Assembly: GCF_964355755.1 (NCBI RefSeq)
Contig: NC_092677.1
Span: 24,601,175 to 24,665,174, forward strand
DNA length: 64,000 nt
DNA from: Antedon mediterranea
Lineage: Eukaryota > Animalia > Echinodermata
Direction: 5' to 3'
The translations under genes were made by a program, and so were the position numbers. The number at the start of each line of letters is the position of its first letter. Within the stretch, counting starts at the first letter, position 1. The notes below the pieces were generated by a model. The model worked only from the letters and a program-made list of their open reading frames with translations. It was not told the origin of the DNA and searched no databases. Shown here piece by piece: positions 376-45,589 of the stretch.

Positions 376-459
376 CATTGGTTGCTGTTCTCGTCGCTAT
401 TGTTGGCATCGCACTATATTATTACTATTTTGCCATTAACGTTTCTGACGACCATGAAG
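376..459 (+). CDS. Gene A cassette exon TM-1 (ALVAVLVAIVGIALYYYYFAINVSDDHE)
   Basis: Acceptor tttctttatag and donor G|gtaact; 84 nt, phase 1-1, open, hydrophobic. Confidence 0.7.
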
Positions 460-847: not shown

Positions 848-925
848 CATTGGTTGTTGTCGTCGCTATTGTTGGCATCGCACTATATTACTATTATCCT
901 GTCATTACCGTTTCTGATCATCAAG
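848..925 (+). CDS. Gene A cassette exon TM-2 (ALVVVVAIVGIALYYYYPVITVSDHQ)
   Basis: Same splice sites as copy 1; 78 nt, phase 1-1, open. Confidence 0.7.
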
Positions 926-2253: not shown

Positions 2254-2316
2254 ATGTCGCTACTGTTGGCATTACACTATATAACCATTTTGCCAGTCAC
2301 GTTTCTGACCATAAAG
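2254..2316 (+). CDS. Gene A cassette exon copy 3, hydrophilic variant (DVATVGITLYNHFASHVSDHK)
   Basis: Acceptor ttttatag and donor G|gtaact; 63 nt, phase 1-1, open, but the hydrophobic core is shortened and more polar. Confidence 0.55.
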
Positions 2317-2733: not shown

Positions 2734-2808
2734 TATTGGTTGCTGTTCTCGTCGCTATTGTTGGCATTGCACTATATTACTCTGCAATTAACGTTTCTGA
2801 TCATAAAG
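2734..2808 (+). CDS. Gene A cassette exon TM-4 (VLVAVLVAIVGIALYYSAINVSDHK)
   Basis: Same splice sites as the other copies; 75 nt, phase 1-1, open. Confidence 0.7.
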
Positions 2809-3216: not shown

Positions 3217-6200
3217 ATCAACTTGTGATGTTAAATGTGAGCTGTAAAGGTAGAACTCTCCATCTTAAAGATGAAGATATAAAGTTGGAGATACCATCTG
3301 GAGCAATTGAAGAAGGGAAAAAAGTTAAAATATCACTAGAAAATATTTGGGAGGAAATAGACATTCCTTTATCTCATCCTCTTAACTCATTAATATCACC
3401 CGTTGTTAAATGTGGACCAGAAGGCACTATCTTCAACAAGCCCTGTTTACTGTCATTTCCACACTATGCTAGAAATGAAGAGTTTTGGGAATTCACTCTA
3501 CTTGTTAAGGATCGCATTCAAGATAAGTGGAAACGAATAGCATTGAAAAGTAATGACACAGACATAAATTTTACTTTAAACAGCGGTCTATGTTGTGTAA
3601 CCTTAAATCATTTTTGTTTTTTTTCGTTTGTGGGTCGTTTAATAAATGTTGTACAAGGAAAGAAAAGTACAATATTACTGGTTTTTGGAAAGAGAATTGA
3701 GAATCATATATATCAACTTCAAATAAGACTTTGTGGATCCGGAGATAAAACGGTAATTATTAATTTCTTATTATTATTCTATTCTAAAAACAACAACAAC
3801 AATAATAATAATATGTTTTACCTGACAACAGATGATATGTTTTTGATTAAAGGATTGTGTGTCACATAAAATTCAATCGATTGAACTCATGCAACATCAA
3901 GAGTGCAATTTGATTTATGTATTTCAGAAAATATGTAAAGAGCATGAACGACATGAGGAGTACCTTGTACGAACACCTGTAGATATACTTACTTTGTATA
4001 AAGACATGAAAATTACTGTAGCAGTACCAAACCAGGAATGGAATGTTCAAGAGGAAGAACAAGTAAGAATATTTCTTAATATGAAAAATTGTATATAAAT
4101 CAATGCCAAAAGTAACATTCAAGTAGTGTAAGCTGTCTCACTGCGGGCCAAATTAAACATTTTGAAGGGTTTATAGTCTTGATTAAGATGGAAGCAGTGT
4201 GTTACTTGAATACATTTACTTTAGAACAGTTACTGTGTTATAATAAATAATAAGTTATTTGTGCCCTACATCTAGCAAAATAAAGAGAGAAAAGGAAAGA
4301 GAAAGTAGAAGAGAAACCATCATTATCTAGGCCATAACAGTTTCTTTGTAATGTGTGACTGACGTGTATCATCACAGCCGAATCGATACATGCTTTTATA
4401 TCATGGAGGAATTAATTTAGCTTATACTTTATTTTACATTTCTATACAATAGTTTTCATAATAATTAAGAAAGATAACTGACTTATTTAGTATTTATTAA
4501 TCTTTATGAATGTTCAGTGTGTTGTATATCACATTAGAGTCACCACTCCGGGGTGCGATTTTTTTTTTCGTACATAAGTTGGGGACCCCTCATGAAACGT
4601 CACAAAATAAACATGAATAATCAGTTAAATTTGTTGTTCCGTGTGCACCCAAGCGTATAGCAACAAGAAGTGATTACACAACTGCGATACGATACTTCTA
4701 CAGTGATTCTAAGTCAATTCACGTGATTGCCTTCGCGCCACTAAGGCGCAGGATTGGTCATAGCAATAAATAGCAAACAAATAGCTGTGTAAATGCTATA
4801 CCTGATACAGCAATAATAGCAATTAATCGACAGCTAGGCAAGACATTAAACTAAGTAGTAATTCATTGGACATAGCCCAAAGAAAGCTTAGACCCACAAG
4901 AATAAAGAATGTGTATAATTTGTGTACTGTATTTTTTTAATTCTGCTATTTTATTATCAAACAGTATGCATGTACTCAAAGGAACTTTAAAAATGCGCGT
5001 ATATGAACACATGAGATGGGAAGATTTGACCCACGAGAATAAAAAATGTATTTTTGTGTAATGTTTATTGTTTAATTTTGCTGACTTATTACTCGGATTG
5101 TGTCATACCAAAGATAGTGTAACTATCTCTGGTCATACCTAACACACACACACGTCACACACACCCACACAGCTACTACTAGAATAGACATGGGTTTAGA
5201 GAGTAAATTAGGCCGAATAGTATTAATAGAAACTATAATTTTAACACGTAATTCTTTAGTAATAAATTATATTAAAAACACCATAAACTAAAGGCTGATT
5301 ATTTCGACAATCCACACAAAACGCCGCTATTCTTCTATGACATTGCACGCCGCAACAACAGCGGAGATAGGCCTAGAATCGTACCGCACTTGTGTAATCA
5401 CTTCTTGTTGCTATACGCTTGGGTGCACACGGAACAAGAAAATTTAACTGATGAATTATTCATGTTTATTTTGTGACGTTTCATGAGGGGGTCCCCAACT
5501 TATGTACGAAAAAAAAAATCGCCTCCGGGGTATACAAAACAAATACACGTTTTTAAATTAGATGCCATACGAGCATCTCAGTCTTATTTTTTCCCAAAAA
5601 AATGTCCTACATTAGGCCTAACCTATTTTCTATTCATATTTATCCACATTCCACATTCTTACATAAAAAGTATATCGGAAAATAACATAAACATAAAATA
5701 CTCTCATTCATAAATATTTATATTTTTCCATCTAACTCTCTTGGTCTTATATATAAATAAATATAAATATATGTGGATAAACACTTGTTTAGTATGGTTT
5801 AAACAATGTTCACTTTGTTAGAATTAATGAGATAACATTGAAAAGGATGATTTGACCAATACAAATATTTAGGCCTTGACATCCATCTTCTAACCGTGAT
5901 ACTGTTGGTGTTATATGGCGTATTGACTGCTCCGACAATATATAAATGACACGATTGATTGTTAATAGTGGTTGGTATGGTGTTTATTTTGCAACCCTCA
6001 GTACAAATGGTGTTGACTCCGTTTTTCTCTCTCCCCTATTTATATTGACCTCTATCTGACCTTATGGTCTACTATTATTTTGGAGGGTTACAGTATCACA
6101 CACACACACCCACACGGGCACGAATCAAATAATTTAGCTTTAGGCCTACTTCTCTTTTAAATAAATGTTTTGAATAATGTGTCAATGAAAACTTTGACAC

Positions 6201-8727
6201 TTCTGATAAACAGTACACAAAACTGAAAGTTTTAACAGTCAGAAATTACAAAAAAATAAATTAACAAATATTATTTTGTTATTCACCAAAGTAGTCAGTC
6301 TAATCACATGCAGTACCTTACTTGAAGCTGTAAAACTTTTTGATATGAGTATGATTTCTCTTTTCTAGATTATTACAACTGACTATGTATGGTCTCAAAA
6401 CCCAGAAAAGACATATTATTTAGAAAGAAATAATTCATCAACAAATACGTTTTGGGCAACAGTATTACTGTCACAAGGAGATGCAAATGCTATTCCTAAT
6501 GTGCCAATTTGTTGTAAGTATAATTTTAAACAAGAATTTAAGAAGTACAAATTATGTAGCACATAAAGTCTACATTTTGATAAAATAAAATAATATGGTT
6601 TGAAAGAATCAAAACATGCATCCTAATTAATAACCAACAACGAATTGTCTATCTAAATTTAAAGAATTATTGTATTATAAATGTTTTTTGTTACAGGTGA
6701 TATTCGGAAATCAAATTCAAATCCAGGTAAATTAAAATATTATGGTAAGTATAGGTTAAGTTGAATTTTTTTTAGTTAGCAGCGTTTTTTTAAATACTTG
6801 AATCATAGTTACACACCTTATATAAAAGTTGCCTTTCCACAGCTACTAGTTTCTAAATTCCTTATTCAAATCGAATTAAAGGGACAGTTACAACTTTTAA
6901 ATACATAAACAAATATATTTTATATTTGTTATTAGTACCGCATTACCATATATATCACGACCTTAAGATCTAATTAGTTTGAAAGCCCAGCTCATTGAAC
7001 CAGAATTAAGTGTAGCACAGGTCAAATTTAGACAAATGCGCGCAATTTGGTGATGGCTTGACACAACGTTTTATACAGCATGTGACATCTATTCCAAGTA
7101 AATACTGTACTCAAAACAAGGTTTTAAACAGTGAAAGACAATGATGATGGATGAATTGATTCCACGTTAGAAATGGTTAGGGTTGATTGTGCCAGGTAAT
7201 GTAAACAATGCTTAACTGCTTAAAGTACTACTGCTCCAGTTCAGGTTTGCGTCAGCTATGAGCATTTCGAGCAAAAAGATTTCTGCATAGCCGCGTAGAG
7301 CTTGAAAAACGAAACATTGAGATTGAGATTTTATTTGCCAGAGCCGGACCGGAGCAGATGTGAAAGACACTTAACTGTTGTTTGCCATATTTAATTGTTA
7401 ATACTGATATTCATTTCAGATCAGCATTCACCAGAAAATGTCAGGTAAGTAGTTTAATGAGTAACCAATTCTGCCAGCATCAAAACTGTTTTATATATAC
7501 AGTAACTACATAAACTATGAAAGTTTATGACTTGGATAGTGGAGAATATGTTGGGAAAAAAACTATACTTAACAAGGCGGCAGCCTAGTTAAACATAGCC
7601 GTCTCCTTCAATGAATGAAATATTCTCCACCATCCAACTACGAATAGGCTACAAAACATTCATTATTTGCTTTTTAACACACCTGTTATGAATTACGTCA
7701 ACAACCAAAATATATTCCTAGGCCTAGCTAGCTAGGCTAAGCCTAGTGTAGAAAATAAGCGACGACAAAAATGCTAGGCAACTGAAACTGATCTACAGTG
7801 TTTTTTTCTAATGATTCCACGTCTTGGAGTTGTTCCCATTAATAAATTTAAAATATCATTGATTAAATAAATTAAAGAGCTTCAAATAGCCTAACCATAT
7901 ACAAAATAAAGCTAAATAATGTCCATGAAATAAGAATAAGATAAAGTAAGTTTATGTAATACTTTACATAATAACAATTTAGTTTAATTTGTATTTAAAT
8001 TTGAGGTGCAATCAATAGTTTAAATTCAAAATAAAACATTTAAAAATATTAATGTATTACCTCAGCCTTAACAAATGTGAATAGTCATCATTTGTAATTT
8101 CTAGAGAGATTTTAAATATCATTACTTATAGTTTTACTTATATCTTTATTTCTAGCTTGAAAAACGGGATACAGTCACTGTTTGCCAAAGGTAATTTAAC
8201 CTTTTATTTATTCTTCTTCTTCTTCTTTATTGTATCAAACAAAAACAATTTCAATACAAAAGGCAGCCAAGGTATAGCCGAAGCTAATCAAGCTTGGTAC
8301 CTTTTATCTTAACTAACTTAAGCTACAAAATTTATATATATATTAAATATATTATTTTATTTAAGTCCTGAGTATTAAAAAGATGTAAAACTTTATTTTA
8401 TATAAAATTGAGGAAATATATTCTTTTCTCTTAACATAATAACAAGTCCCTAATTTTATTTTGTAAATTCAACAATCACAAATAATATTATAAAAAAAAT
8501 AACTTTAGTTATTTTTAAATCTCATCAAAATTGAGACTTTAATGTGTTTTTTTTTTATTCCAGAAAACCGTGTTTTGATAATTTGTTTTATTGTGGTCAT
8601 AGTGTCTGCATTCTTAATATATATACTGCACGATACAGTAGCAACATTTTGCAGTAGCATAGTTTTGGCTTTATCTCTGGTTACATGTGGCTATCAAGTA
8701 TATAAAAAAATAAGAGGAATAGACTGA
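3217..8727 (+). CDS. Gene A core: ZU5-UPA (UNC5/PIDD/FIIND-like) protein with C-terminal two-helix membrane anchor; exons 3217-3752, 3928-4062, 6369-6513, 6697-6726, 7420-7444, 8156-8190, 8564-8727
   Basis: ZU5 motifs LEIPSGAI, ISPVVKCGPEGTIFNKPCLLSFPHY and LNHFCFF. All seven exons have AG/GT ends with matching phases (1/0,0/0,0/1,1/1,1/2,2/1,1/stop). The last exon encodes two hydrophobic helices (VLIICFIVVIVSAFLIYIL; FCSSIVLALSLVTCGY) followed by KKIR. Confidence 0.85.
4545..5531. mobile_element. Non-autonomous DNA transposon (MITE) with ~135-bp terminal inverted repeats in a gene A intron
   Basis: 4549-4680 (gcgatttttttttttcgtacataagttggggacccctcatgaaacg...gtgattacacaa) is the near-perfect reverse complement of 5390-5530. 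Confidence 0.8.
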
Positions 8728-9810
8728 ACTACAACATGCCAATGAAAAGAATGCAAGTGCAAGCTACTAGGTTTTGCGAAACAAAAAAATACACTTTTGT
8801 TTTCATTAAGTTAAAATCTGTTTCTAATTTACCTTCCAAATGTAGGCAACAGTGACTCTAGGCTAGTATGAAATTCAAACTACTTGTTGTGTGTTTATCC
8901 TGTTTTCGTAAAATACTTTCAATAACTTACCCATGGCCATATTATAATCATATACATTCCTGAATATGGTTACTGGTCCTCATAAAAACAAATACATGAA
9001 ATGAGAATCAGCTTTAAAATACCATCACCGATTCATTGAAACTCTTACTGACTGTTAACAGTCTAGTATAAATACTAAAAATAAATAAATGTGAAGCAGT
9101 AAGATCTGATAATCGACTAGAAAGAAAAATGCCACTCTAATAGATTGAAAATATAATAATAAAAAGGAATTTTTTTATTATTGGCAACAAAGTATGTATT
9201 TAATGCTTCAAACATTTTGTAATTTAATTGTAGGCCTATATGCAGTAGAATAGCTACTGTAATATTATAGCAATTATATTTATCTGGTTTCCTTACACAA
9301 TGTTACCTTCTATGTTTATTTATTTTATTTTATTTTAAACTCTCTCAAAACAGAACTGTCATAAAAATAGAATTTCTCTTTATTTTAATAAATTAATTGT
9401 AAATGTTAATTGTGTGTGGTTTTAGTATTATATTTGTAAATAATGGTATGCATTGTTTTTCTTTGTATTAATCAACATTAAATATAACTAGAATTGGATT
9501 CGTCGATGACGAATTATAGGTGATTATTGTGAAAAAAGATAATTTTACCGACATTTAATTAAAAAAATAAATTCGCGTGTTGGTGATTTGCATAACTTTT
9601 TACATACATAGTCACTGGTTGGAGGTACACACCTAATTGGTGACAGTGGCTTAGGCTGCTTTTGTGCTTTCCTGGCAGCTAGTGACTTATATTTCTTTTG
9701 CGTTGCGTTTAATTTGTTGATTTGTATTATATTTTGTAAAATGTAGCTTTTGCCTGAATAAATAATAAATAAATAAATAACAATAAACAAATTAAAACGT
9801 TTTTATTTAT

Positions 9811-9930
9811 ATAAATAGTATGTTGAACAAATACGATGGTAATCATTTGAAATCTAAAAATGTTACCATTGATTTAAAGGGAAATGACCTTTCAGATATT
9901 GATACAGATTCACTTGGGAAGCTGATCAAC
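9811..9930 (+). pseudogene. Isolated relic of an NLR LRR repeat (NSMLNKYDGNHLKSKNVTIDLKGNDLSDIDTDSLGKLIN)
   Basis: Clear nucleotide and peptide similarity to the gene B repeat at ~27825-27945 (NSMLKKHEVKYLKLKNITIQLEDNNLSDIDTDSLVKLIN). Confidence 0.75.
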
Positions 9931-13157: not shown

Positions 13158-16100
13158 ATGGCAAACACAGGTACGTTAGATCATAGAGATAGTTCACTAT
13201 AATATCTCTATGGTTAGATCTATTAATTAATCCATGATAAGACGTGTTGTCCTACTCTGATGTAATTGTACTTTGACCAATCAATCGAACAGGCTTGCAT
13301 TGCGCCTACGTCGTTGCGTTTTGTTGGGACAAGCTTAAAGCGTGGTTCCCACTAGCGACGCAACGCAAGGACGTAACGCAACGCAAGTGAATTCGTAAGC
13401 GATCACAAGCGATGGCTTATTCGCTTGTGATTACTTCGCTTGTCATTGGTTAAAACGCTTGCGTTGTGTTTACGTCCTTGCGTTACGTTCTAGTGGAACC
13501 ACGCTTAAGAAGACGGCGTAATTACGTCAAGGAGGGCACAGCATCTGGTCAAATTAATTAGCTCCTTGAAGCAAACCTACATCGCAATTATCGTCAACAT
13601 TAATGCATGACGAGGGTTCACATTCCCCCGACGCTAAAAGCAAAGCAAAACAATATGAAGAACATCAAACTACACTGTGGTATTCAAATGCGAAAATGTG
13701 CTTATATAATCTGGCTCCTCCGATGGCACCACTCCTGCTAAAACCTAATGGTGATGATAATGTTAATATTAGAGTAGAAACAGATAATGCGTCGATTGAG
13801 TAGTATTCCGTTAAAACACTTAATTTTACATTTTTATTTTACAACTTATACTTTCCAGCATTATCAAAAGAGGAATGTAGCCTATTGAAAAGTTCTGTGG
13901 CAAACTGGTTTGACCAACGTAATTTAATCAGTATGATCAAAGTTTTGTACGAAGAGTTGGTGACTAGTAAACAAGACTTACATAAATCTACTACAACGTT
14001 GGAATTGATCAACTTGGTAAATACTTATAAGGGATTTAGTCAAAATGATCCAAGTCTTTTACTTGCGACAATAAATGTTACTGGGCAACACGGCATATGG
14101 AACAAAATAGAAAAATTAAAATTACCTGAGCTACGTCAAACAAGAACAGTATCAATGTTCAGTGAATTCAGACAGAAGGTAATGAGGCTCGGATTAAAAA
14201 TGAAGGCTTGTGACGTAAAAAGGATAAGTCATTTGTATGAAGAAACAAAGTTTAGAAAGTATGAGGATAGCTGGAGTTTGATTATTGATCTTGAACATAA
14301 CGCCCACTTATCTAATAAAAACATGACGAGGTTCATTAGAACGTTAAGCGAGAATAGTCTCGGTCATTTAATATATACTATAGATGGCGGTATGTATTAC
14401 ATTTTATCCTGATATTGTTTATTTAAATACTATAACATTTAATTTACTAACCAGTATACCTATTTTCAAACAGTATTACATAATTAGATTCAAATTTAAC
14501 ATTTTGCTTGATTATTGATCTTAAACTTATCTTATGAAAACATGATAGAATTCATTGACATGTTAAGAATAAATACGCACTTTTTAATATGCGGAATGTA
14601 TTCAATTTTATCCTGATAATGGTTTATATATACTTTATACTATATAATTTACTTTACTAACCAGTATATCTAATTTCAATCAGTAGTATACGATAGAGTC
14701 AAATTCAATCCACCATTATTCACATATCCACAAAATACTGTTCAATTATTCGGAAGTAAACGAGAGATAATTTGAGCGTATTATCTAGTTTTAGTAATGA
14801 CTCTAGGTCAGGTCAATCGATGAGTCATCGGTCGTCGCCTGGACCATGGATGAAATAAGTATAATTTTGTTCATGCCTGGCCCTAGTAACCATCAAACCT
14901 GTGTCACGGTGGGGAGCGAGGACACATGTCCAATCTCCGCATGCGCATATTTCAACAATTAATTATCGTCGGTCGTGGCAAATCCAAAGCCCCCTAATGT
15001 TTCTTTACTTTGCTATATGATACAGGTGAACAACAAGTTGATATTGTTGAAAACAGAGACTTTGAATTACCAGGAACCGCAATAAAAAAAAAAGGTATGT
15101 AAATCAGTTTAGAAAAATCTGATTGATTTATTTTAATCTGGTCAAACAATTGTTGATATTATTCGATTGCATTGTGGATTTAAAAGCGGCACGAGGAATG
15201 GAGCTCTAAATAGATTAAATTAATCGAATATCTAAACAATTGACCATTAGTAGTAGTAAATACATTTGTCTACTACTGTATTTCCAATGCAATATTTAAG
15301 ATACAAGTGATTTACCTGCAAATTATTGACTTGTATGTGATCATGAATTGTAATACTGTACTTTCATATTATATATATAATATAGGCCTATATATAAACA
15401 AATTAGGCATAGAACATTAATTCCAAACCGCCCGGTAATATACTGAAATTTAATTAATTAATTTGAAACGATAAAGATGAGACTCGAACTCGGACCGCCT
15501 GCTTGATATGCAGATGTCCTAACCGTTAGACCACGGTATTGTTCGAACTCGATTGGATAGCGACTCTTTAACATTCTCGGCGTGGTACGGCCGGCGGAAC
15601 AGCAGCACTAGTCCTCAGTTGTACGCACGCGCACCAGAGATCAAATTGATACGCCCTCATCTTACAGTATTTTTATTTATTTTATATATACATATGTTAG
15701 TAATATATAAATTGTTTAAAATATTATATGAATCATGAGATGTGCTATTAACTGTAGAATGGCAAACAAATAACAAACAAAAAAATCTTGGTGATCTATA
15801 AATGTATAAATTGAAAAATAAAACAAAACTAGATAATTTGATGATTATCTCATTTTTTTTATAAGATCTTGTATTTTTGTATTCATGACTTTTTATATAT
15901 TTTTAATTAATTGTTTGAGAGCTTGTTAACGAAACGAAATTCCTTTTGGACCAATACATTTCTGTATTCTGTGTATTCTGTATTCTGTATTTGGCCTAAG
16001 TTTATAATGAAGAAAAGATATGCAATCATGAATTAGTATAAGGCATATAATATGATGTATGTTATATTTGTACATACATGTTTTATATATTCCCATACTT

Positions 16101-19100
16101 CAAAGAGTTTGGTTATGCTTTGTAACGTGTTACAAACCAAATACTGTAATTATGTAATTATGATGAATTCGATTAGATAATGTAGGCCTATATATATAAA
16201 AATCATAATGAATGAAGCAATTTTAATGATGATGAAATAAAAGTGGGAAACCCACAAAAGACAAAAAAAAAATACATTTGTCTGTTTAAACCAAAATAAA
16301 ACATGAAATTAAATTTAGTTGTTATTATCATGTATTATTATTCTTATTTTAACCATCAACATCAACTTCGTTTATCGAAGATAATCGGTTATTTTCTGTA
16401 TCGAATATTACTTTCTTAAAATTTACTTGAGTTGAATTAATATTCTTCTGACAACAAGAAAACTACTCACAGATACAATTAAGAAACAAACCCATGCATT
16501 ATAAACCAAAAGTCTAATTTGAGCCACGGCAGTGGCACTTTATTGGCCGCGAGAACTGTGACAGCCCCATGATTTGAACCCAGGACCTGGGATTAACAAG
16601 CAAGCTAATCAGACACTAAAGAATCAACAGATCAGAAACCTATATAGTTGGCTCTGTATTTCTTTTTTATACGTATGTTTTTGTGTCTTGTATTTTATAA
16701 TCATTTCCTCCTATAACAGTCAGTCTCATCTTTTATTAAATCAATTATACAGTAGGCCTACATCAAATGCAGTACAGTACACGGTTTTTGATGTTGTTAA
16801 GACATCAATATTAATATTGTGTTTCTTTATAGCATTGGTTGTTGCTGTTGTCATCGCTGTCATCGCTGTTGTCGTCATCACTTTCATCACTACTAGGCCT
16901 ATAGGAGGTGATGATTTATCTTTTTTTATGGTTAGGTTGAGGGTTAGGTTATGGTCTATCAATACTAGGTGATACACGTGAAACACATGTGATGCTATAT
17001 TCCAGAATTCAAATGACACTGGAGAAATTTAGATACAGTATCAAGAATCAGTTGCACGTAACGAGTAAAATCCATCTGTCATGATTAGGTTAGTCATAAT
17101 GGCATATGACCCAGGCATCACATGTGATACATATATGACATTAATTACAGAATTGTATAAAGTGATATTCATGAACAAATTATATACATAATGTATTAAG
17201 TACTGACATTTGGTAGGGAGAACGGTATGAGGGAAATAGTGAACCTCCAGGAAACCACTGTCTGGGGGTCAATGGGTTTTGATTAAATGTAATGTTTATT
17301 TTGTCGTAGGCCTATAATCATTCGTTTATTTAAATGATTTTCTAATTTGTTTGAGCAGTAATTATTTGTATTTTATTTGTCTTTTAACTTAAATGTAACT
17401 GTTTATTTTGACATTTTATAACAACATTATTATTTTTAAATATTACTTGTGTTTTGCCTACTATACTAAGTACTGTATTTTTTAATTTTTAATTTTATTT
17501 ATCTGTTAAATGTTAATTGAATTATAGGTCGACCAAATGCGCCAACAGTCACACTGTTGGAACAAAACCTCACTTCCATTACACTACGAATAGAAGACCC
17601 TGAATACACCGGTGATCTTGACCTAATTTTCTACAATATCAGCTTTAAATATGAAAGTAGGGGAAAGGATGTCGTTGATTTTAATATGTTTGATTACAGT
17701 AAGTCTTCATCAATTAAGTAAAATAAAACAACTATTGGTTGACATTGATAACCAAGGGCTGCACAGAAAATGTTGTTTATTTCTCCTTTTTTTATTATTC
17801 AATCAGAGGATAAAAATGACAAAGATTTTCAAATTTACACAATCAAAGAACTGTTATCAGAGAAACCATACAAAATCAGAGTGGCTGGCAAGAATAAATA
17901 TATGTTAGGATACCAAAGCGAAGAATTATACGCTAGAACACTAACAGAAGGTAAGTATCGTTATTTCATGAAGGATACATAACTTAAGATTTAAGTACAG
18001 CAATCCATTAGACTTAGGTACCATCAAAATGTCCACAAAAGTTGGTTAAACTGAGTTAAATATGGGTTGGTAATGTGGAAAAAAGACTTTCTGAATACCA
18101 AAAAGTTATCTATTGTGATCATTACATAGTTTGAAAAATATATATACACATATGTATTACCAACTGTCTGAAATGCGACATAGGCTGTACAGTAAGATCA
18201 AGAAAATGGTTCCTTTCCTGCCCTAAACTCTGTAAATTAAGAAATGGTCTAATCCGCCATGTATGAACACATAATGTAATACAGTAATAATAATATTGTG
18301 TAGACTAATAAACATTTATAACTGTTTAGTAATTCATTGTTAGATTCCAAACATTATTATAAAACATATGGACGGATTAAAATAAAATAATAAATTGTTA
18401 CTGTGAGCGTAGGTAGGGAGGATAAGGGAGAAAATCAAACTGTGTACGTCAATACTACTTAGTTAGGGAAAATCAGCACCAAACCTAGAAAAAATTATTT
18501 ACAAAGCGACTTTTATGGGAAAACCTTTATATGAATCTAAAATACCACCAAAAAAAAGTTCTAAGGATTTGGCCCATGGGAGACTTTTTTTGGCGTCATT
18601 TTCAAAATGGCCGCTTACAACTTGACATGCTTGTATCTTAGTAACCATTAATCATGGAGACTTGGTTTTGGTCTTAAATTGTTGAGAAGATACATATTCC
18701 TATTCTTCATAATGAAACATTTTGTCCAAAAGTGACCAGAAATGATATTTCTGACGTTTTGACCTTTGACCTCAGCTTATTATATCTCAATAACTACTGG
18801 TCGCATAATCTTCATATTGGTCTCAAATTGTTAAGAACATGTATGTTCCTATTTGGTATAATGGAGCATTATGTACAATTGTGACAAGAAGTATGGTTTT
18901 ATTAACTTTTAACCTTATATGTGAAAAGAGCACCAAACTTGAGAAAAAAATCACATTTTAAATGTTTTTGAGGGTGGGAGAGGGGATTATTCATCATGTA
19001 ATAACACCGAAACTTGGATATTGCTCCCAGTCGTTTACTTACTAAAGATTCCTTATTATTGGTAATAGTTTAAAATCCACATGTAATTATAGACGTACAA

Positions 19101-22100
19101 TGATATTATTTTTACCAAATAATCAACTTTCTTTAAAACATACACCGTCACTTAGACGAAAGCTGATGATTTTGTTGTTGTTGAGACTAGCCAGATTATT
19201 ACTGTGTCAGTAAAGCCTAGGTGTCTTCATCAGAAAAATGAATGAAAAGTTACATGAGCCATTTTCACATTCGTCTAATGTTGGGACTGGTGTTAGTTCA
19301 CCATTGATGTTTTTTCCAACCGTATTTGGTGGCATCAAAGACATGTACATCAATTTCATGATGTGCTAATTTCCTCCAGTCCAGTACTTGAAACCATACC
19401 CTCAATGAGTGCTGTAGGATGGCACCTTCAGTTGGAGAGTGACGCTCAATTGTTAAGCTACCCCTCGCTACCATTTTGGAGTACATACGTACTCTATGTT
19501 GTCATGTCTTCATCAGCACCATACATTAGTTGCATCAACGATGAGCATGTCAGCATCTGCTGAATAAGCATGGTAAACATTAATTCCATCCTCGGCTAAA
19601 GTCGATCATAATAAGTTAATTAGTTCTTGCTTATTTTTCAAATTTGAAAGAAACTGTGTCTTTTGGACAATACATCTTTGGTTTGTTGACACCTTATAAC
19701 TTGCACATTTAATCTTTGTTCTTCGTTTGTGTTCATGGTCTTTTATTGATGCATGTGTGTAAGTGTCAAAAATGACTTCTACTGTTCCTGCCTGGAAATT
19801 CTTTTTGATATAATTACTGTAGGATTTAATTATATCTAGGAATTTTGAATTTGGAGTCCATGGAGTCTGATGTATCAACCATCCTCCATCTATAACGTAC
19901 ACACACTGGCTGACTCAGATATGGTTTTGAGATAGTTCCCAAGTGACGCCTTGTCAGGCTTCTGTAAAAATTCAGAGGTATCATACAGGGATGTTGATAG
20001 AGGTGTCAGTTCATATTTTAATGTTTCACATAGTGAAAAGTTATCACGTTCACTGAGAAGGACAAGTCTTGTAAATAGGGTTGTATTGTTGACATAAGCA
20101 TTCTTTCCTCCAACTTTCACACATTTTTTACATGTAGACATGATAATGGTTTAATGTTTCGTGTAGACATTCTGTGATTCAGAGGTTTAGCATCTACTTG
20201 TTTCTGTATGGTGAGAGACCTATATTGTAGCAATTGTCACAATTTACTTCGTTGACGAATTCAGTGGATAAACCTGTCGACAGTGAAACGATGATTTTAC
20301 TGTGGATTCTGTGGATCTTCAAAACATTCATTGAACCAATTGAGTACTTGACCGAAGATAGATGTGTCAATTTTCATTGCACTTTGTGAGCATTCTTTGT
20401 GTGGCAGGTTTGGAGTGTTTCCTTTGTCTTCTAGTAGGTGATGGATCTCAGAAACATGATTCAAAGTCAGTACCCAAGGCAGGTATGTTGCTCCGCTTGT
20501 AGTTGAAGTACCCCTCATCCGGCCCATAGACAAACCGCCCTGTGATTTTGAATGTCTCATAAGGGTCTGTTCAATTGCTATGTCACTCCATACACCTGCC
20601 CATTGTTTTTCGTTATATCTGATGGTATGATCCCCATTGCAGAATATCGCCCATGTGGCAGGATCATCTTTTTTCAGCTGCAACATAGTCTGAAGGTATA
20701 TACTGCTGCCTTTGTCTAATGTGTGTTGCTTCTCTATACATAAACAAATATTCTATTTATGCTTACCAAAATTGCATTTGATATGCTGTTGCTGCACTCT
20801 TTCTAACAAACATTTGAAATGTATCCTGCTAGATGGCGCTTCCTGATTGGTCAAAAAGTTTAGCCTATGTACAGCCATGTGGTGGCGGTGTTAATACTTG
20901 AATTATATTATTAATAATAATTGAATAATATTGGTTAATTGGGTTCAACGGTCAATAAATGGTATTTCTACTTGCTTTATAGAAAAATGTGTCATTACTG
21001 CAAATATAAAGTTGTACATTATAAACAAATTAAGACCAAAACCCACTCTCTAGGTCAAATAGTTATGTAGCTATGAAACTTCCGGTCAAGAAAGGTCAAA
21101 GGTCAGAAATAGCATTGCTGGTAATTTTTTAGAAAAATATTCCATTATTGCAAATAGGAAATTGTACATTGCGAACAATTTGAGACTAAAATTAAGCATC
21201 TACACTGTGTGGTTAATGAAGTACTAACTCGTTACTAAAAATAGATTTGACCTTTATATAAAAGGTCATAACTCCTTCCCCCATAGAGAAAATCACTAGA
21301 ACTTTTTTTTGGTGACCCCTGGGACTTATATGTTAAGTTTGATGATAAAAATCCTTTGTAAATAATTTTTTCCAGGTTTGGTTAAAAAATGACGTTTTTA
21401 ACCCTAACTAACTACTTAGTTAACGCATTAGTGTTTTTCTACTTGACAACATTCTACAAACAAACGTATATTTTTTATTTGTTTGATAATTTAGATTCTA
21501 TATTATCTACATTAATACCTAATGTGACGTTTTCCATTCCATTCCATTTCTTAAATAAATCTAAAGTTTATTTTATATTTTTTTATATATATCATTTGCA
21601 TAATAAATATAAATGTATGGCTAATGTGCATATTATGTGGCATTTAGAAGATAATTAACATAGATATTTCAACAAGTAATGGGATGGAACCTTGGGAACT
21701 CCACAGAACAATGGGAATTAGATTTGAATCAAATTATTATTTTTTTTCTTATTGACCAAAGACCATTTATTGAACACTCATTAAACATTATACAATAAAC
21801 TTTAATTTCAATATCATGGTTACGTTATTAGTGGCAAAACAATCAATTAAAAAATATTTGTTTCTATTTTCTAATGTCATTTGTCATGTATGTTTATCTA
21901 TTTTTATTCAAAACAATGTTTTATAATAATACAAAAATCAATCTTCACCAATTACATATTAATTACGATTTTTTATACGACTCTGACATCATAATTCGAT
22001 AGTTTACAGAGTGAGATATTTAGATCGAAGGTTTTGGACAAAGAAAACGCAGATTGTGTTTTTTGCAATAGGCATGTTTATAATTGTTGATACTAGATGG

Positions 22101-25100
22101 TTCTCGAATAGGCCTACACAGTAATTTCAGCGTCAGTGTAAAAAAATGGCGATTTCAAATGTACGTACCGCAGGACTATATTACATGTCATTTACAGAAA
22201 CGAATAAATAGACACGATGATTTATGTAGTCAACTAAAATTAGCACCTTGGGAATTACTTCCAAAAGAGAAACTTGTCACAAAATTTGTCTGATTTGGAC
22301 TCAGTTAAACAAACCCAATTTGTGTTTTGTGTAACATTAGGGTTGAGGGATGGGGAAGAGGATGGGTACAAAGAAGAACAACTTTTAAATATATTCTTTA
22401 TCTAACGAAATATTTGTTCATCTTTGATAGGCCTATAAATAATATATCACTTGATACAGTAACACATTTGCGATTTAATACTTTGTTAAAACTGTCACTG
22501 TCATAGTCGATTGAAATAGCATAGTACATGTAACGATACACCACTACAACGTTTATATATTTGTAATTATTAATTAATAGTCCATGGGCCAGACATTTTT
22601 TTCGGTATCAAATTGGTGGCAAATGCTACCATACATTTTTGGAAAGCTTAATCTGTCTAATTTTCAGAAATCCATGATAGCAATGCCAATAGTACAGCTT
22701 AATAGTCATTTTTTAGGATTATATAACACCGCCTACGGAAAATATGCAACACAAAATTTTGCGGTAGGGGGTAACACTTTTCCTAATAACTCGGGATGTA
22801 ATGAACAGATTTGCATTTTCTTGGTATCAATATGCAGTGTATAGACTGCTAACGTGTAATATATTTTTCTAAGTAAATCCAACAATTATTGACACCATTA
22901 GAGGTCAGAAGGTCATTGAACTTTAATAAAAAATGATTTTTTTTCTAATATTAACTTATAACTTTCAGTTTTTAACAAAAAAAATACCATAGATGTTATG
23001 TAAACTGATGTTTTCATGAACATATAGACCCAATAAACAAGAAAATTGAAGTTAAAGATTAACAAAATATGAATATGCTGTGTATTATGAAGAAATTTGT
23101 TGTTTTTAGTAATTTGTAATCGTTTACAGTTATGGGGTAGGGGGTAACATTTTTGCGAATAACTTAAAATTTAGTTAACAGATTTGCATTTTCTTGCTAT
23201 CAGTATGTAGTGTATAGATTGCCTAATTGTAGTATACTAAATGAATCCCGCATTTATTGACATCTTTAGAGGTCAAAAGGTCACTGACCTTTAATAAAAA
23301 ATGCAATATTTTTCTAAATTAGCTTATAAATTTCAATTTTAAACACAAAAATACAAGATATCTTATGCAAACTAATGTTTTCTTAAACCTATAGACAGAA
23401 TAAATAAGAAAATTGAATTTAACATTTTTTCAAAATTGAATATGCTGTGCATTATAAAGAAACTTGTTCGTCATTAATAATCTTTGACAATAATGGGGTA
23501 GGGGGTAACATTTGTGCAAATAACTTAAGATTTAGTAAACAGATTTGCATTTTCATGTTATCATTATGTAGTGTATGGATTTCATTATTGTAATATACTT
23601 TTTAAAAATGAATCCAGCATCTATTGACGTCTTTAGAGGTCAAAGGGTCAATGACCTTCAATCAAAAATGCAATTTCTTCTAAATTAACTTATACATTTC
23701 AATGTATAAACGTTTTGAAAATAAGGCCTATGTCAGAATTCACATAATTTGAGTAATTGAATAGTTTGCGTTTTGTAATGTGATTTATGACACTTTAAAA
23801 TTAAGATACAAAGTTGTAAATTGGTATATCTAGGGTCAATTCCCACCATATAATGCAAATCTAAAATGGTAAGTAAGAACAATCAGAAAAGCTTATATTG
23901 TATATATGTATTGTTGAGGCACTTGTGGTTGCCTCAATAAAATATTAGACCATTTACTCTTTTCAACTGTGTCTGGCATGGCTTTAAAGTTGGTTACAGA
24001 CCAAAAATGGGCAAAAAAAGATTATATTTACAGTGACCTTTGACCTAGGCAACATTTATCCACCCACATAAAATTATTACCATTTTTGAACACATATCTG
24101 GTGTACCTCCGGACAAAATTCTGTTTTGGAGACTCATCTCCTATATGGTGTGACAATTTTGCCATTTTAAATGATCTACGGGGTATTTCGTTGTGGCATA
24201 ACTTCCTAAATACTAAATAGCATATTGCAACTATCCCCTTGATGCCCTAGAATGTTACCAAAATTAAAAGGTGCACCAGCTCGGCGCTAGTATCGGACTT
24301 CTGGTTTAGATGGGGATAGAGGACGAAATAGAGGAACATATTTTGGCGTAGTGCTATTATATTATAGATAAGTAAACTAGTCACTAACTCCGTGTCGATT
24401 ACTCACCTATAGAGATATTATAGTTCACTATAATATCTCTATTACTCACCCTAGCTGTTCCATATTGTGTACCGCCGCGATAGGTATATTCTACAACATT
24501 TTAGCAGGCCTTTACGATTGTTCCATTTCTCTCCTAGGAAGATATCATGAAGGGTTTTAAAACGAAATTATAGATTTCATCGGTAGATTTTTGAAACGCC
24601 AATTTCGGACCGCGCGTGAACGTAGTTAGCAAAATAAAAATTATACAGTACTGAAAATTTAATTAATTAATTAATTAATTAAATATGTTCATAAATCAAC
24701 GAAGTATATTGTGGGGAATAGTATATAAAAGTACATCGAGAGAACTGATGATAAGACCTTTTGTTTAAAATCGGTGAAACCCCGATAGCTGAGGTGTTGA
24801 ATTGAGTAAGCTGGAAGGTCTGTATACTGCGCGCTATTTGTGTCCCGTTAAGACCCTTGGATACTTCTGCCCATGTTGCAAGTCGTCTAAAACACTTAGG
24901 CCAAAACGGCCTACTGTGTCTTGGAAGTTAGTTTCACAAGATGTTTAAACTAAACAATGTATTTTATTATACCAATTAAGATGATATTTATTTGAATAAA
25001 CGCCCAACACCCCACACATATCGTCATCTCTTCAAGGTATGCCATTCGTTGAGCATTGAACTGCCTCATAAATATTGGGTATTCTATTGCGTTCCGCTAA

Positions 25101-28100
25101 ATTTCTTTATTGTGTGTATCGGTTTTCTTAAACTTTTTACAATTTCAACAATACCATCATGATAGGGCGTGAATGTCTTGGCTGTCGGTTTAAATTGTTT
25201 ACGATTTTCATGAGGAAGAGTAATTAAAAATGGGAAATACATTTGCATCACATTTAGGTATATTGAGCATTCATTAAACATATACATTAAACTAAATACA
25301 CTTCAATTTCAATATTATGCTGATGAAATTCGGATAAGGCCCTCCACGGTATAGTAGCCAGAAGTGCAGAACCTACCAGATCAGCACACCGGGTCCCGGA
25401 GACGATCCCTACGTTTTTCCATTTTTTTGTTTTACAATAATACGACAATTATTCTTTACCAATCACTATTAATTACGAGATTCTGACCTCATAATAAGAT
25501 AGTTTACAGATTGAGATATTGAGATCGAAGGCTTTGGACAAATCAAAGAAAATACAGATTGTATTTTTTTGCAATAAGCATATAGATATACAGCAAGGTA
25601 GTATGTCAACTGTAAAATGATACTAGGACTAATGATGTAAGGAAAATAATGGTTAACAATTATTTTTCTTTTCAGATGAAATTATCCGAAACTTTTTAAC
25701 AGCAGAACAGAAAAGGAAATTTAAAGATCCAAACAGGAAACCGCCGACGTGGGACACGTATTTTAGACATACATACAACATTTCACAGATGTTTACTGAT
25801 CTAATATTGAAACCAGAAATTTTGAAGAAGTATAAATACCTGGATTTAAAAATCGAAAGTCCTACATCATTAAAAGAACTATTATACTTTATCAGGTCCG
25901 TGGAATCATGTAAAGTATGCATGACAGGAGAAGGAGGGGTTGGTAAGACGACTTTACTTCAGTATATATCTTATAACTGGGCAATTGATTCAGATTCTAC
26001 GTTTGCCGGTAAAATATTATTTCTTATAAATGTACGAGATATCGAGGCAGGTAAAACAATTACAGATATGATTGTAGCGCAGGTTAGTATGAGTATTTTT
26101 TTTAAACATACTAATCTCCCGACAAATGAACTACTAATAGAAAGGTTTATACAGAAGTATGACAGGGAGTTAATTGTGTTGTTAGATGGATTAGATGAGT
26201 TGGAATATGGTGTCGTAGGGCCAAAACTGATGTTAGAAGGTAATGAACTGAGGGAAAGCATAGTTATTATGACATCACGACCGGGTTTTACGAAAGACTT
26301 ACTTATTCATTGCGATTTAGATGTAAAAGTAGAAGGGTTTTCTAAAAATAACATTGAGGAATATATTCAAAAATATTTTATACTTGTTGAAAACCCTGCG
26401 CTTGGTGATTCATTGATTGAAGAATTCAAACTTAATTCGGAATATACAAGTTCTTGGGGTGGCGATCACAAAAAAATATTTGAATTCCTGCAATCCCCTT
26501 TTTTATTACTTAAAATGTGCACCATATGGGACCATGAACAAATAATTCCTAAACATTTTGAACACTTTTTTATAGAAATTTTTCGATGCATTTTAAATCA
26601 GTACCTTAATAGGAACGGTACTTCTAAAGCAATTCCAAAATATCTTGACTTTCCCGACGAGTTTAACAATTCACTTCGAATATTAGGCAATATTAGTTAC
26701 ATAAAACTACAGACAAATTTACTTCATTTTTATAAAACGGATTTGATAAACCTAGCAGGAAATAACAGTTTAGTTGACTTATCTCTTAAATTAGGTTTTG
26801 TTTACAAAGACCCTCCATCTGAAAAAGATTCCTTTTTGGAGACTTATCGATGTCCACATAAGTTACTGGCAGAGGCCCTAGCAGGATTTTACTTGTCTTA
26901 TAAAAGTCAATTTGAAATTTTAAATTTTGACGAAAGTGAAGAAATAAGAACTAACACGTATCTACATATGACTAGAGTGTTTACAGTTAGTTTTCTAGGT
27001 CCCAACGCGGACAAACTTATGAAATACTGGTTGTTGAATAATGCTTCTCATTATTACTCATTTGCAAAATATTTCCAATATGTAAATAAAGAACACGAAA
27101 AAAGGGTATTAGAATCACTTGATGAGCACATAAACCAATCGAAAGAACTAACGATACAAGTCGAACGCTTAACGCGTTCCTTTACAGCGTTTTATAATTA
27201 CAATTTACACTTTATACAGCATTTGAAATTGTTACATGAAGAAGTAACAAAATCAGGTAGATATGTAATAGAAAATAAAATTATCGAATTGATAGAAAAA
27301 TCGACAAAAGAATCATCTGAAGATATTTGCAGGCTTGTAGCACACGTATTAATAATAATACAACAAAATAAGAATATAGGGATCGATGAATACGTTGAAT
27401 ACAGTGACTTATATTTACTGTATTTATTTAATAAATGGGGTGATACAGCTATTGAGATTCTCTCAAACGAGTGGAGAAGATGTCATTTAAATGAAGAAAT
27501 ACAGGAAATTAGTTTTTCTTACCCCATGTCCACGTTATTTCTTATTACTTATTTGAATGGCACACACTTATGTCATTTTTTTCAATCTTTTTCCAACCTT
27601 CGATTTCTCTACATGGACGACGGTGGTTATATATATAATGGTAAGCTTATTAAAGAAATTATAACCGAATGTAACAATAGTACAGTGTTTTCAGAATTAA
27701 CGGAGCTTGATCTCAGTCACAATGATTTAACAGATATAAATGGAACATTATTAAGTCACATAATTCATATTTCTAAAGATTTGAAAAGAATTAATTTAGA
27801 ATCTTGTAATTTAAATGGTACCCATATAAATAGTATGTTGAAAAAACATGAAGTAAAGTATCTGAAGTTAAAAAATATTACCATTCAATTAGAAGACAAT
27901 AACCTTTCAGATATTGATACAGATTCACTTGTAAAGCTGATAAACTTAGAAACATCCGGGTGGTTAAAATGGAAAAATTATAAACTATCAGCCAAGCACT
28001 TACAAGCTCTTCTGATTTCACATCAGAAGTACAGATTTATAAGAGTCATTCGTGTTGATTTGGATAATGTAGACCTATCGTCAATTAATGGAAGTATACT

Positions 28101-29133
28101 AGCTAACATTTTTATTATATTTCCAAATATAAATAATCTTTTTATGAATAGTTGTAATTTAGTAGGTAGCACTATGTCTGATATGCTAAATATACAAATA
28201 TCTAGTAGTACGCATGTAAATAGTATGTTAAAGGAAACTGTTGCAAAGTATCTAGAATCTAAAAAAATGACCATTGAATTACATAGAAATGACCTTTCAG
28301 ATATGGATGCAGATTCACTCGGACAGCTGATAGACGTTCACTTTTATAGTGGACTATATTTTTTTCGTTTAAAATGGAAAGGTGATTATAATCTATCAGC
28401 CAAGAACTTACAAGCTCTTCTAATTTCACCTCAGAAGTACAGATTTCTAAGAGTCGGTTGTGTTGATTTGAATAATGTAGACCTATCATCAATTAATGGA
28501 AGTACACTAGCTAACATTTTTATTGTATTTCCAAAAATAACACGTCTTTTTATGAATAATTGTAATTTAGTAGGTAGCATTATTTCTGATATGCTAAATA
28601 CACAAATATCTAGTAGTACGCATGTAAAAAGTATGTTGAAGGAAACTGTTGCAAAGTATCTAGAATCTAAAGAAATTACAATTACATTAAGTGGAAATAA
28701 CCTTTCAGATATTGATACAGATTTACTCGGGAAGGTGATAAACTTTGAAGCATCCGTGTCGTTAACATGGACAGATTATAATCTATCAGCCAAAAACTTA
28801 AAAGCCCTTCTAATTTCAGCTCAGAAGTACACAGTTTTAAGAGTCGTTACTGTTAATTTGAATTATGTAGACCTATCCTCAATTAATGGAAGTACACTAG
28901 CTAACATTTTTATTGTATTTCCAAATATAACAGATCTTTTTATGAGTAATTGTAATTTAGTAGGTAGCACTATTTCTGATATGCTAAATACACAAATATC
29001 TAGTAGTACGCATGTAAATAGTATGTTGAAGGAAACTGTTGCAAAGTATCTACAGTCTAACAAAAAAAAAATTACCATTGGATTAGGTGGAAATAACCTT
29101 TCAGATATTGGTGATAGACTTAAGATTTCATAG
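13158..29133 (+). CDS. Gene B: membrane-anchored NLR, tandem death-fold (DED-like)-linker-TM-FN3-NACHT-LRR, ~1486 aa; exons 13158-13170, 13859-14389, 15026-15094, 16833-16907, 17528-17698, 17807-17950, 25676-29133
   Basis: All introns are phase 1 with AG/GT ends, and the summed CDS of 4461 nt is in frame. Walker A GEGGVGKTT, Walker B LLDGLDE, sensor-1 TSRP, winged-helix HKLLAEALAG, and LRR motifs (LTELDLSHNDL, LKRINLESCNL). Confidence 0.8.
13339..13505. mobile_element. Palindromic PIF/Harbinger-type MITE
   Basis: TIR agcgtggttcc...ggaaccacgct with long internal inverted symmetry, flanked by TAA on both sides. Confidence 0.65.
13859..14389 (+). CDS. Gene B exon: tandem death-fold (DED-like) N-terminal domain
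   Basis: Helical ~177 aa with two repeats carrying DED-like patterns (TTLELINLV; SWSLIIDLEHNAHLSNKNMTRFIRTL); acceptor ctttccag, donor G|gtatgt. The fold assignment is by pattern only. Confidence 0.6.
15476..15540 (-). mobile_element. tRNA-derived SINE head / tRNA pseudogene
   Basis: The minus strand reads tggtctaacggttagg (A box) ... gagttcgagtctc (B box); no convincing acceptor stem. Confidence 0.5.
16833..16907 (+). CDS. Gene B transmembrane exon (ALVVAVVIAVIAVVVITFITTRPIG)
   Basis: Acceptor tgtgtttctttatag is identical to the gene A TM cassettes; 75 nt, phase 1-1; preceded in frame by KKK from exon 15026-15094. The donor gtgatg is weak. Confidence 0.7.
17528..17950 (+). CDS. Gene B fibronectin type III domain (exons 17528-17698 and 17807-17950)
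   Basis: RPNAPTVTLLEQNLTSITLRIEDPEYTG..LIFYNISFKY ... YTIKELLSEKPYKIRVAGKNKYMLGYQSEELYART matches the FN3 consensus (P.AP, SITL, Y.I, L...Y..RV.A.N..G..S); both donors are gtaagt. Confidence 0.85.
18460..21410 (-). mobile_element. Academ (AcademX-type) DNA transposon, internally deleted and frameshifted, in a gene B intron
   Basis: Termini TAGTTAGGG...CCCTAACTA, 3-bp TSD ACT on both sides, and subterminal inverted homology. Minus-strand ORF pieces carry Academ transposase motifs (WSDIAIEQTLMRHSKSQGGL; LFTRL...EL.P..SL) and an XPG/PIN-like nuclease (VIDGGWLIH, IFDTY..SIKDHEHKRR, FLSNLKNKQELI). Confidence 0.85.
22760..23720. repeat. Tandem array of a ~365-bp unit (~2.7 copies), probably internal to a non-autonomous DNA element starting near 22578
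   Basis: ggtagggggtaaca...cagatttgcattttc...tagaggtca recurs at ~22762, ~23134 and ~23496. Confidence 0.75.
25676..29133 (+). CDS. Gene B large NACHT-HD-LRR exon
   Basis: Acceptor tttcttttcag|ATGAA (phase 1) is in frame with the 1114-aa ORF; NACHT motifs are intact; LRR super-repeats of 130-136 aa. Confidence 0.92.
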
Positions 29134-29846
29134 TAGGCATTTGTTGCTTTATTAAATTTGGAAAGGTGGTTATAATCTACAAGTTCTTCTAATTTCACCT
29201 CAAAAGTACAGATTTCTAAGAGTCGAGGGTGTTGATTTGAATAATCCAGACCTATCATCAATTAATGGAAGTATACTAGCTAACATTTGTTTTGTATTTC
29301 CAAAGTTAACCCATCTTTCTAAGATTGGATGCAATTTAGTAGGTACCATTATTACTGATATGCTAAATACATGTAGAGAAATGAATATTGAACTGAACGA
29401 GAATTCAATATCACTAATGAACAATAACATTTCTATTGATGGCGAATCGTTACTTAAATTATTGTGTTATAAGAAACGATGAATACAGATGCTCAGAAAC
29501 ATTAGAGTGGAGGAGATATAGTTTAACAGGTGGCAATCTTAAAGATATATTACAACGACCTAATAACAATGAATTAAAGTGGAAATATGTTGATTTAACG
29601 GATATAGATCTATCTTTAATTAGTGGTGTTACATTAGCGAAAATATTTAAATTATTTCCAAACTTAACTTATATAAGACTGAAAATATCAGACGATATTC
29701 AGCGAGAAATGTTGAAGGAATGCGTTAAACTCAGTGTTTCATTAGAAAATATCACAATTGATGTTTCATTTTCCTCTGGACAGTTCTGCCTTCAACGAGA
29801 GATAATTGAAAAAAAAGGACGTTTAATTTATACAAATTTGTTATAG
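29134..29846 (+). pseudogene. Frameshifted continuation of the gene B LRR region
   Basis: ORFs 29237-29482 and 29436-29846 continue the DLSSINGS..FP.L..L...C.L repeat in different frames. Confidence 0.7.
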
Positions 29847-40316: not shown

Positions 40317-40475
40317 TCGGCACAGAATATCTCTGCTCATGTACAGATAACTTTCTACTTAAGTACACAATGGGATAATCATTACCCTCACCATCTATTT
40401 GGCTCAGCACTGCACCTATGCCATAATTTGAGGCATCGGTTTGCAATATAAACATCTTATCAAAATTTGGGGCTT

Positions 40476-45573: not shown

Positions 45574-45589
45574 TCAATAATATGACAAC

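Follow-up and report, generated by a model that had tools for sequence, protein, structure and literature searches.

A ZU5-UPA gene with a candidate HF|C self-cleavage site and hydrophobic segments on both sides of its fold, in an NLR cluster of Antedon mediterranea

What would be the purpose of cleaving a ZU5 domain if no death fold were released by it? This question is raised by a gene on the forward strand (3217-8727) of a 64,000-nucleotide (nt) window of Antedon mediterranea DNA (contig NC_092677.1, positions 24,601,175 to 24,665,174) that lies in a cluster of NLR loci. Its ZU5 domain ends in VTLNHFCFF (3597-3623), as already noticed in a sequence-only reading of the locus, and we consider self-cleavage between the Phe and the Cys of this motif probable. 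The seven exons of that reading, with their three micro-exons of 30, 25 and 35 nt, have held up: all have AG/GT ends, they translate as a single open frame through to the stop, and from base 376 onward the gene model is identical, letter for letter, to residues 202-656 of the annotated A. mediterranea protein XP_071957970.1 (P0002; 656 amino acids, or 662 in isoform X1), with 100% identity over the translated ZU5 exon. The elements of this part of the gene are as follows.

3217..3752, + strand: exon 1, with the complete ZU5 domain and the first part of UPA (splice ends, frame, Pfam, AlphaFold)
3609..3617, + strand: His432-Phe433-Cys434 (codons CAT TTT TGT), the predicted self-cleavage site (Phe|Cys)
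3928..4062, + strand: UPA exon 2 (frame; joined in contig 19 of run X5)
6369..6513, + strand: UPA exon 3 (frame; joined in contig 19 of run X5)
6697..6726, + strand: micro-exon of 30 nt (splice ranks; the other donor, at 6744, gives the 48 nt of isoform X1)
7420..7444, + strand: micro-exon of 25 nt (splice ranks, frame)
8156..8190, + strand: micro-exon of 35 nt (splice ranks, frame)
8564..8727, + strand: final coding exon, with two hydrophobic helices (KD19 3.32 and 1.84), a basic C-terminal tail and the stop
9080..9085, + strand: AATAAA, the first 3' of the stop and the likely poly(A) signal

Ranked with a splice-site matrix trained on the other exons in the 64-kb window, the micro-exon acceptors took ranks 1-3 among the 114 AG sites of the interval from exon 3 to exon 7, and the donors ranks 1, 4 and 8 of 92, the rank-2 donor (6744) being that of the annotated isoform X1. 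Transcript evidence comes from X5, one of ten runs considered, none of which is on record as RNA; X5 is RNA by our guess, and its sample and study differ from those of the best DNA runs. Exons 1-3 are spliced, as the introns between them are absent from contig 19 of X5 (1191 nt), whose pieces 1-273, 274-409 and 410-554 map to 3479-3751, 3927-4062 and 6369-6513. The contig differs from the window at four positions of its first piece (3654, 3700, 3702 and 3709) and leaves the HFC codons unaltered. If its remaining 637 nt comprised exons 4-7 plus the untranslated region, it would end at 9110, 25 nt past the first AATAAA, and its length thus fits, indirectly, the rest of the gene model. X5 read depth at the micro-exons themselves is swamped by repeats. 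Intron 2 contains, at 4548-5529, an element resembling a miniature inverted-repeat transposable element, with long inverted ends (arms of 70, 42 and 41 nt) and very high read depth.

Pfam recognizes ZU5 (PF00791) in P0002 with 67.9 bits against a cut-off of 21 (E=1e-19), and a UPA beta-sandwich stands right behind it, phmmer matching residues 309-560 to PDB 3G5B. The Pfam UPA and FIIND profiles gave no match in P0002 at E 0.05, the UPA profile matching paralog P0005 below the cut-off, and neither NACHT nor LRR was found in P0002 by Pfam. In an AlphaFold model built on a 96-row alignment, residues 301-570 are of high confidence (pLDDT 87-98 per block) and the remainder low. In keeping with the UNC5B- and FIIND-like fold proposed earlier, this model aligns with UNC5B (Z 26.4, root-mean-square deviation (rmsd) 2.1, 274 residues aligned), ankyrin-B (Z 20.2), CARD8 (Z 17.3, rmsd 3.5, 247 aligned) and rat NLRP1 (Z 17.0, rmsd 3.8, 248 aligned), and its residues 449-582 with the UPA chain of rat NLRP1 (Z 10.3). 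ESM Atlas returned ZU5/UPA clusters only (best 0.91), and a toxin-like beta-sandwich for UPA was discarded, its Z of only ~7 being at the level of a common fold.

In the model, Phe433-Cys434 form a two-residue turn that joins strands 425-432 and 435-442, with His at -2 and Phe at -1 ahead of the last ZU5 strand, and Cys434 rather than Ser/Thr at +1. GAIN domains align with the model at Z 7-10, and the cleaved latrophilin-1 chain 4dlq_A (Z 7.5, rmsd 3.3, 128 aligned) ends at its residue 837, opposite model residue 433, where the alignments of two further GAIN chains likewise end. Since T838 is the nucleophile of latrophilin-1, with H836 as the base (PMC13062082), the model places Cys434 at the nucleophile position, where the sequence-only reading had put it. 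Ser, Thr or Cys can initiate cis-autoproteolysis (PMC3210808, PMC9162469). The match in register to the cleaved GAIN structure, together with the restriction of the +1 residue to Ser, Thr and Cys described below, makes self-cleavage at Phe433|Cys434 the probable outcome, with predicted fragments of 49.0 and 25.5 kDa.

How unusual is the cysteine? A full HMMER scan gave 314 relatives at E<=0.001, and the counts that follow rest on the best 150 of them; 153 proteins gave 165 domain rows, 141 of which cover the cleavage site and 24 do not. The residue behind HF (94 rows) is Thr in 62, Ser in 21, Cys in 9, including P0002, and Arg in 2, both Arg rows being fragments whose alignment stops at that position; the Cys share is possibly inflated, as the query itself carries Cys. 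At 9 of 94, HF|C is not the exceptional motif it had been taken for, and its other bearers are four Antedon paralogs, one Patiria protein, one Ptychodera protein and two unnamed proteins. Because the +1 residue is Ser, Thr or Cys in 92 of the 94 HF rows (Ala or Gly in 0), as against only 6 of the 18 rows that lack the Phe, this toggling among three residues suggests selection for a nucleophile. On a tree of 139 rows, the 11 rows with Cys at +1, two of which lack HF, require 10 changes, at least 8 of them forced by strong branches, which is no fewer than with shuffled labels (130 of 500 shuffles as low); Cys reads as a recurrent minority state scattered across the tree, and the 12 Antedon rows divide into 5 Cys, 4 Ser, 2 Thr and 1 partial. 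That HF|C might be a one-off or an assembly error was ruled out by the second sample (X5) and by the paralogs with HF|C. Word-seeded protein searches gave matches from Antedon only, and a literature search with guessed names of Ser-to-Cys mutants returned nothing relevant. Literature searches, judged mostly from listings and not extending to four central papers that might mention Cys variants, showed neither a naturally occurring HF|C ZU5 nor a gene with the order DED, transmembrane segment (TM), ZU5, UPA, TM. The cysteine is, in our view, a chemically conservative variant on an ordinary fold, and the unusual part of the gene is its reversed, doubly anchored architecture.

The earlier proposal that a two-TM tail replaces the death domain is correct at the 3' end: two hydrophobic helices lie within 8564-8727, and Pfam, the reading frame and AlphaFold place only a linker and these helices between UPA and the stop, with no death domain. 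It probably does not hold for the protein as a whole, as the annotated N-terminus (~180 residues) is a probable tandem DED with 93% protein identity to the DED exon of the next gene. A death fold such as the same reading had suggested looking for upstream is probably present in the annotated protein; the corresponding exons fall outside the window, on its 5' side, and are known as protein, not as DNA. Pfam DED matches P0002 below the cut-off (E 8e-4) and AlphaFold has low confidence in the head region; the 93% identical head of P0010, the annotated protein of the next gene, aligns (TM-score 0.78 over 173 residues) with an echinoderm cluster, 51% of whose members are DED. Membrane anchors had also been foreseen, and hydrophobic exons do precede ZU5 in addition to the hydrophobic C-terminal helices. 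The features of the 5' half and of its surroundings are the following.

376..459, + strand: hydrophobic exon copy 1 (TM1), 84 nt, phase 1-1 (KD19 2.23; P0002 residues ~202-229)
848..925, + strand: hydrophobic exon copy 2 (TM2), 78 nt (KD19 2.25)
2254..2316, + strand: exon copy 3, 63 nt, hydrophobic core mostly lost, a poor TM (KD19 0.32)
2734..2808, + strand: hydrophobic exon copy 4 (TM4), 75 nt (KD19 2.59)
9808..9930, + strand: remnant of an NLR LRR repeat, 41 codons, 81% identical in DNA to the LRR (27824-27945) of the next NLR
13860..14389, + strand: tandem-DED exon in the gene that follows, 93% identical in protein to the head module here, of which it is the donor or a sister
16833..16907, + strand: the one hydrophobic exon in the gene that follows, a homologue of copies 1-4 above

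All four copies are of phase 1-1 and are homologous, acceptor context included, to single exons at 16833, 36326 and 56134 in three neighbouring loci. X5 depths back-calculated from bins for exact exon lengths (6.07 for copy 3 and 6.06 for copy 4) hint that these two copies are both spliced in; as a control, the same calculation gave 11.55 for exons 2 and 3, listed at 11.6. The ZU5-UPA part has 49-58% identity to an expanded Antedon family on other contigs. Because an LRR remnant lies behind the stop, at a distance of 1.1 kb, the gene looks like a young chimera of an NLR locus, in which the ZU5-UPA-anchor module of the expanded family would have replaced the NACHT-LRR part in a copy of the next locus. 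Its link to the NLR cluster is closer than was first claimed, with a common DED head, a common hydrophobic exon and the LRR remnant.

The reading that we prefer, tentatively and at somewhat less than an even chance for all of its parts together, is that of a self-cutting, membrane-tethered regulator of DED signalling on the cytosolic side, made up of the DED head, four hydrophobic exons, ZU5-UPA with HF|C and the two-helix tail. In this protein His432 would activate the thiol of Cys434, an N-S acyl shift at Phe433 would be driven by folding, and hydrolysis of the thioester would yield the two fragments, which would stay associated through the last ZU5 strand, the arrangement known from CARD8 (PMC3210808). 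Each fragment would retain its own membrane anchor, with the death fold on the N-terminal one; for these reasons no soluble death-fold fragment would be freed, and the position of the death fold would make the UPA-death-fold release of NLRP1, CARD8 and PIDD1 inapplicable here. The cut may act as a latch, the DED-bearing half and the UPA-hairpin half parting once ZU5 is degraded or pulled, and this latch could switch a membrane DED platform or a decoy for DED partners. Candidate partners, for which the only basis is the 93% identity to the neighbour's head, would be the near-identical heads found in the receptors next to this gene, or else caspase-8-like proteins; a complex prediction for the two DED heads, run without alignments (score 0.00), carries no weight either way.

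The location of ZU5-UPA relative to the membrane bears on this reading. Its sequons (NVS, NDT, NFT, NNS and NSS) had been taken as a sign of a luminal position, an argument that has not survived as proof of a luminal domain: their excess is borderline (5 vs 2.2 expected, P=0.052-0.057), and NFT and N[ST]S occur also in paralogs without any hydrophobic segment. The same test on the NACHT-LRR of the neighbours was mixed (P 0.04-0.94). A simple count of Lys plus Arg (K+R) over 16 topologies gave a bias of +10 to +11 for ZU5-UPA inside and -2 to -3 for ZU5-UPA outside, each with a hairpin tail, and the paralogs are soluble or anchored only C-terminally, which favours the inside. We lean towards the inside at a little better than an even chance, with a smaller though substantial share for the outside and a small remainder for mixtures produced by exon skipping.

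Several observations weigh against the cytosolic, self-cutting reading. Ser, Thr and Cys are interchangeable for reasons of size too, and an intact H-X-S/T motif is insufficient for cleavage in the related GAIN fold (PMC13062082). Joins at the transcript level are seen directly for exons 1-3 only, the 5' exons being known from the annotated protein, and the model of paralog P0013, which begins within ZU5, probably lacks part of the N-terminus. Two of the sequons, NVS307 and NDT413, are innovations of this gene, and the K+R bias for ZU5-UPA outside reaches +4 when the last helix is taken as non-crossing. Convincing hydrophobicity is seen in only three of the four repeated exons, and since three spans place ZU5-UPA outside, the cytosolic model requires the weak third segment to be threaded, or one exon to be skipped or non-spanning. 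A non- or very slowly cleaving scaffold, with Cys as a size-neutral replacement, an intact membrane DED decoy or adaptor, and a ZU5-UPA that binds as in UNC5B and ankyrin, would agree with the insufficiency of the motif, with the uncleaved UNC5B as the top structural match, and with the absence of a large Cys clade (10 changes for 11 rows), as expected of a short-lived variant. We consider it rather unlikely, however, as His and Phe are retained here whereas the non-cleaving UNC5-receptor-like rows lose the entire motif (QLG, KLG, AFG), and Cys recurs in 5 of the 12 Antedon rows as well as in starfish and hemichordate proteins.

The new sequons and the positive K+R bias also speak for an outside-facing, GAIN-like receptor, in which TM1, TM2 and TM4 would span the membrane, ZU5-UPA would be luminal or extracellular, as would the FN3 of the next gene, and would cut at F|C, and shedding or unfolding would signal to a cytosolic tandem DED. 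Three strong hydrophobic segments would preserve the sidedness of the neighbours' single segment, with its basic residues on the N-terminal side and FN3 after it, and an echinoderm NLR with an extracellular NACHT has been reported (PMC13133943; TMHMM plus indirect assays). Such a receptor is nevertheless unlikely, given that the sequon excess is partly inherited, that the hairpin tail, with basic residues at both cytosolic-looking ends, scores -2, and that close paralogs lack any N-terminal hydrophobic segment. The ZU5-UPA regions of PIDD1, NLRP1, CARD8 and ankyrin are cytosolic, which also counts against it, as does the cytosolic ZU5-UPA of UNC5 (PMC10084454). A wider and distinctly unlikely version would make the whole cluster one of inside-out immune receptors, each with a cytosolic tandem DED, a span and a swappable outer sensor (FN3, FN3-NACHT-LRR or NACHT-LRR are the candidates in the three neighbours), the present gene having swapped in an outward, GAIN-like ZU5-UPA that cuts itself via a cysteine thioester and is wired to death-effector signalling. 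It is quite improbable, lastly, that the gene is a young, functionless shuffling product of a fast-turnover cluster, transcribed and unselected. Its head, 93% identical to the neighbour's, its decayed exon copy, the LRR remnant, and the transposons and broken LRR frames close by would all suit such an origin, but the frame is open over 11 exons in the window, the micro-exon phases (1-1, 1-2 and 2-1) are intact, a spliced contig comes from another sample, and ZU5-UPA has diverged by ~40-50% from all paralogs found with its core residues undamaged.

PIDD1, a soluble LRR-ZU5-ZU5-UPA-DD protein (DD, death domain), is cut at HF|S (S446 and S588) and frees a death-domain fragment. As in PIDD1, the ZU5 of the present gene closes with His at -2 and Phe at -1 and has UPA behind it; the present gene differs in its single ZU5, its cysteine and a C-terminal fragment without a death fold. 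With the FIIND (SF|S) of NLRP1 and CARD8 it has in common the fold and the NLR setting, at 4-9% identity; it has His instead of Ser at -2 and lacks both NACHT and a CARD after UPA, and functional degradation of its protein could not free a death fold. UNC5B (ZU5-UPA-DD, PDB 3G5B), a type I netrin receptor, is nearest by both sequence (E 6e-12) and structure and has lost the motif (DQLGTY opposite NHFCFF). UNC5CL (ZUD) is a membrane-anchored ZU5-UPA protein that retains autoproteolysis (PMC10084454), and many of the relatives found carry an N-terminal hydrophobic segment ahead of ZU5. In UNC5CL there is one anchor, at the N-terminus, and UPA leads into a death domain, whereas the present gene starts with a tandem DED and has four hydrophobic exons, a candidate Cys nucleophile and two hydrophobic helices in place of the death domain.

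In the Antedon paralogs P0013 (XP_071948789.1) and P0005, too, an HF|C-bearing ZU5 and a UPA occur together with a hydrophobic anchor at the C-terminus; their models have no DED or hydrophobic cassette before ZU5. P0013 (49% identity to P0002) adds a two-helix tail to ZU5-HFC and UPA and lacks a death domain, P0005 adds DEDs and a tail anchor, and P0007 joins Roc-COR and DED to ZU5-HFC. A common origin of the present gene's tail with those of P0013 and P0005 was rejected (a score as high in 81 and 72 of 1000 shuffles), whereas the tails of P0013 and P0005 are related to each other (1 of 1000), which suggests that anchors were gained more than once. The sea-cucumber proteins AjNLRC4 and AjNLR-new are echinoderm NLR-type proteins with transmembrane segments and so are relevant to the neighbours, but they are Ig-NACHT proteins without DED, LRR or ZU5 (PMC8699970, PMC13133943). 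Shuffling of ZU5/UPA and death-fold domains is known in marine invertebrates (PMC8195603, PMC3482391); bioRxiv 10.64898/2026.05.12.724683 and PMC3879445 were also covered.

In the parts of this literature that we covered, the tested ZU5, GAIN and MAIN self-cutters use a Ser or Thr nucleophile. The toggling among Ser, Thr and Cys in close paralogs of one animal would provide a natural panel for studying the function of Cys and the fate of the thioester (kept or transferred). The polarity of the gene, with its death fold ahead of ZU5 and anchors at both ends, is opposite to that of NLRP1, CARD8 and PIDD1. The significance of these findings is bounded by their concerning one young gene of one species, with a role suggested by sequence and models. 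The hydrophobic exon common to three neighbouring NLR loci makes the membrane topology of invertebrate NLRs testable, and the DED-TM-NACHT layout of these neighbours is possibly more surprising than the ZU5 gene itself.

In the neighbouring loci B (13861-29133), C (35336-38510) and D (49232-62458), the homologous hydrophobic exon (19-22 residues) stands between the tandem DED and NACHT. Predicted splicing gives open GT/AG chains of the order DED-linker-TM-FN3-NACHT-LRR in B (1481 amino acids) and D (1082), and DED-(linker)-TM-NACHT in C (832-847), all with intact Walker A/B motifs, and a single span would set NACHT-LRR across the membrane from DED. The annotation stops locus B after FN3 (P0010, 350 amino acids). 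In locus D both the end of the linker exon (50924-50982) and the start of the hydrophobic exon (56134-56194) are in phase 0, so that the two are usable only together. The LRR frames behind the stops of B (29133-29846) and C (38510-40250) are shifted, as in broken genes or through assembly errors.

Mobile elements are interspersed among these loci. Between FN3 and NACHT of locus B, 18546-21314 has 38-nt inverted ends and broken minus-strand open reading frames (ORFs) and is probably a DNA transposon. On the minus strand of 40476-44712, Gag-, integrase- and reverse-transcriptase-like ORFs in separate frames look Ty3/gypsy-like by eye; no long terminal repeats were found in 40001-47500. Remnants resembling reverse transcriptase occur at 31150-31820, 53859-55909 and 58125-59080. 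Three diverged copies of a ~370-bp unit lie at 22730-23718, within the intron that leads up to the locus B exon for NACHT.

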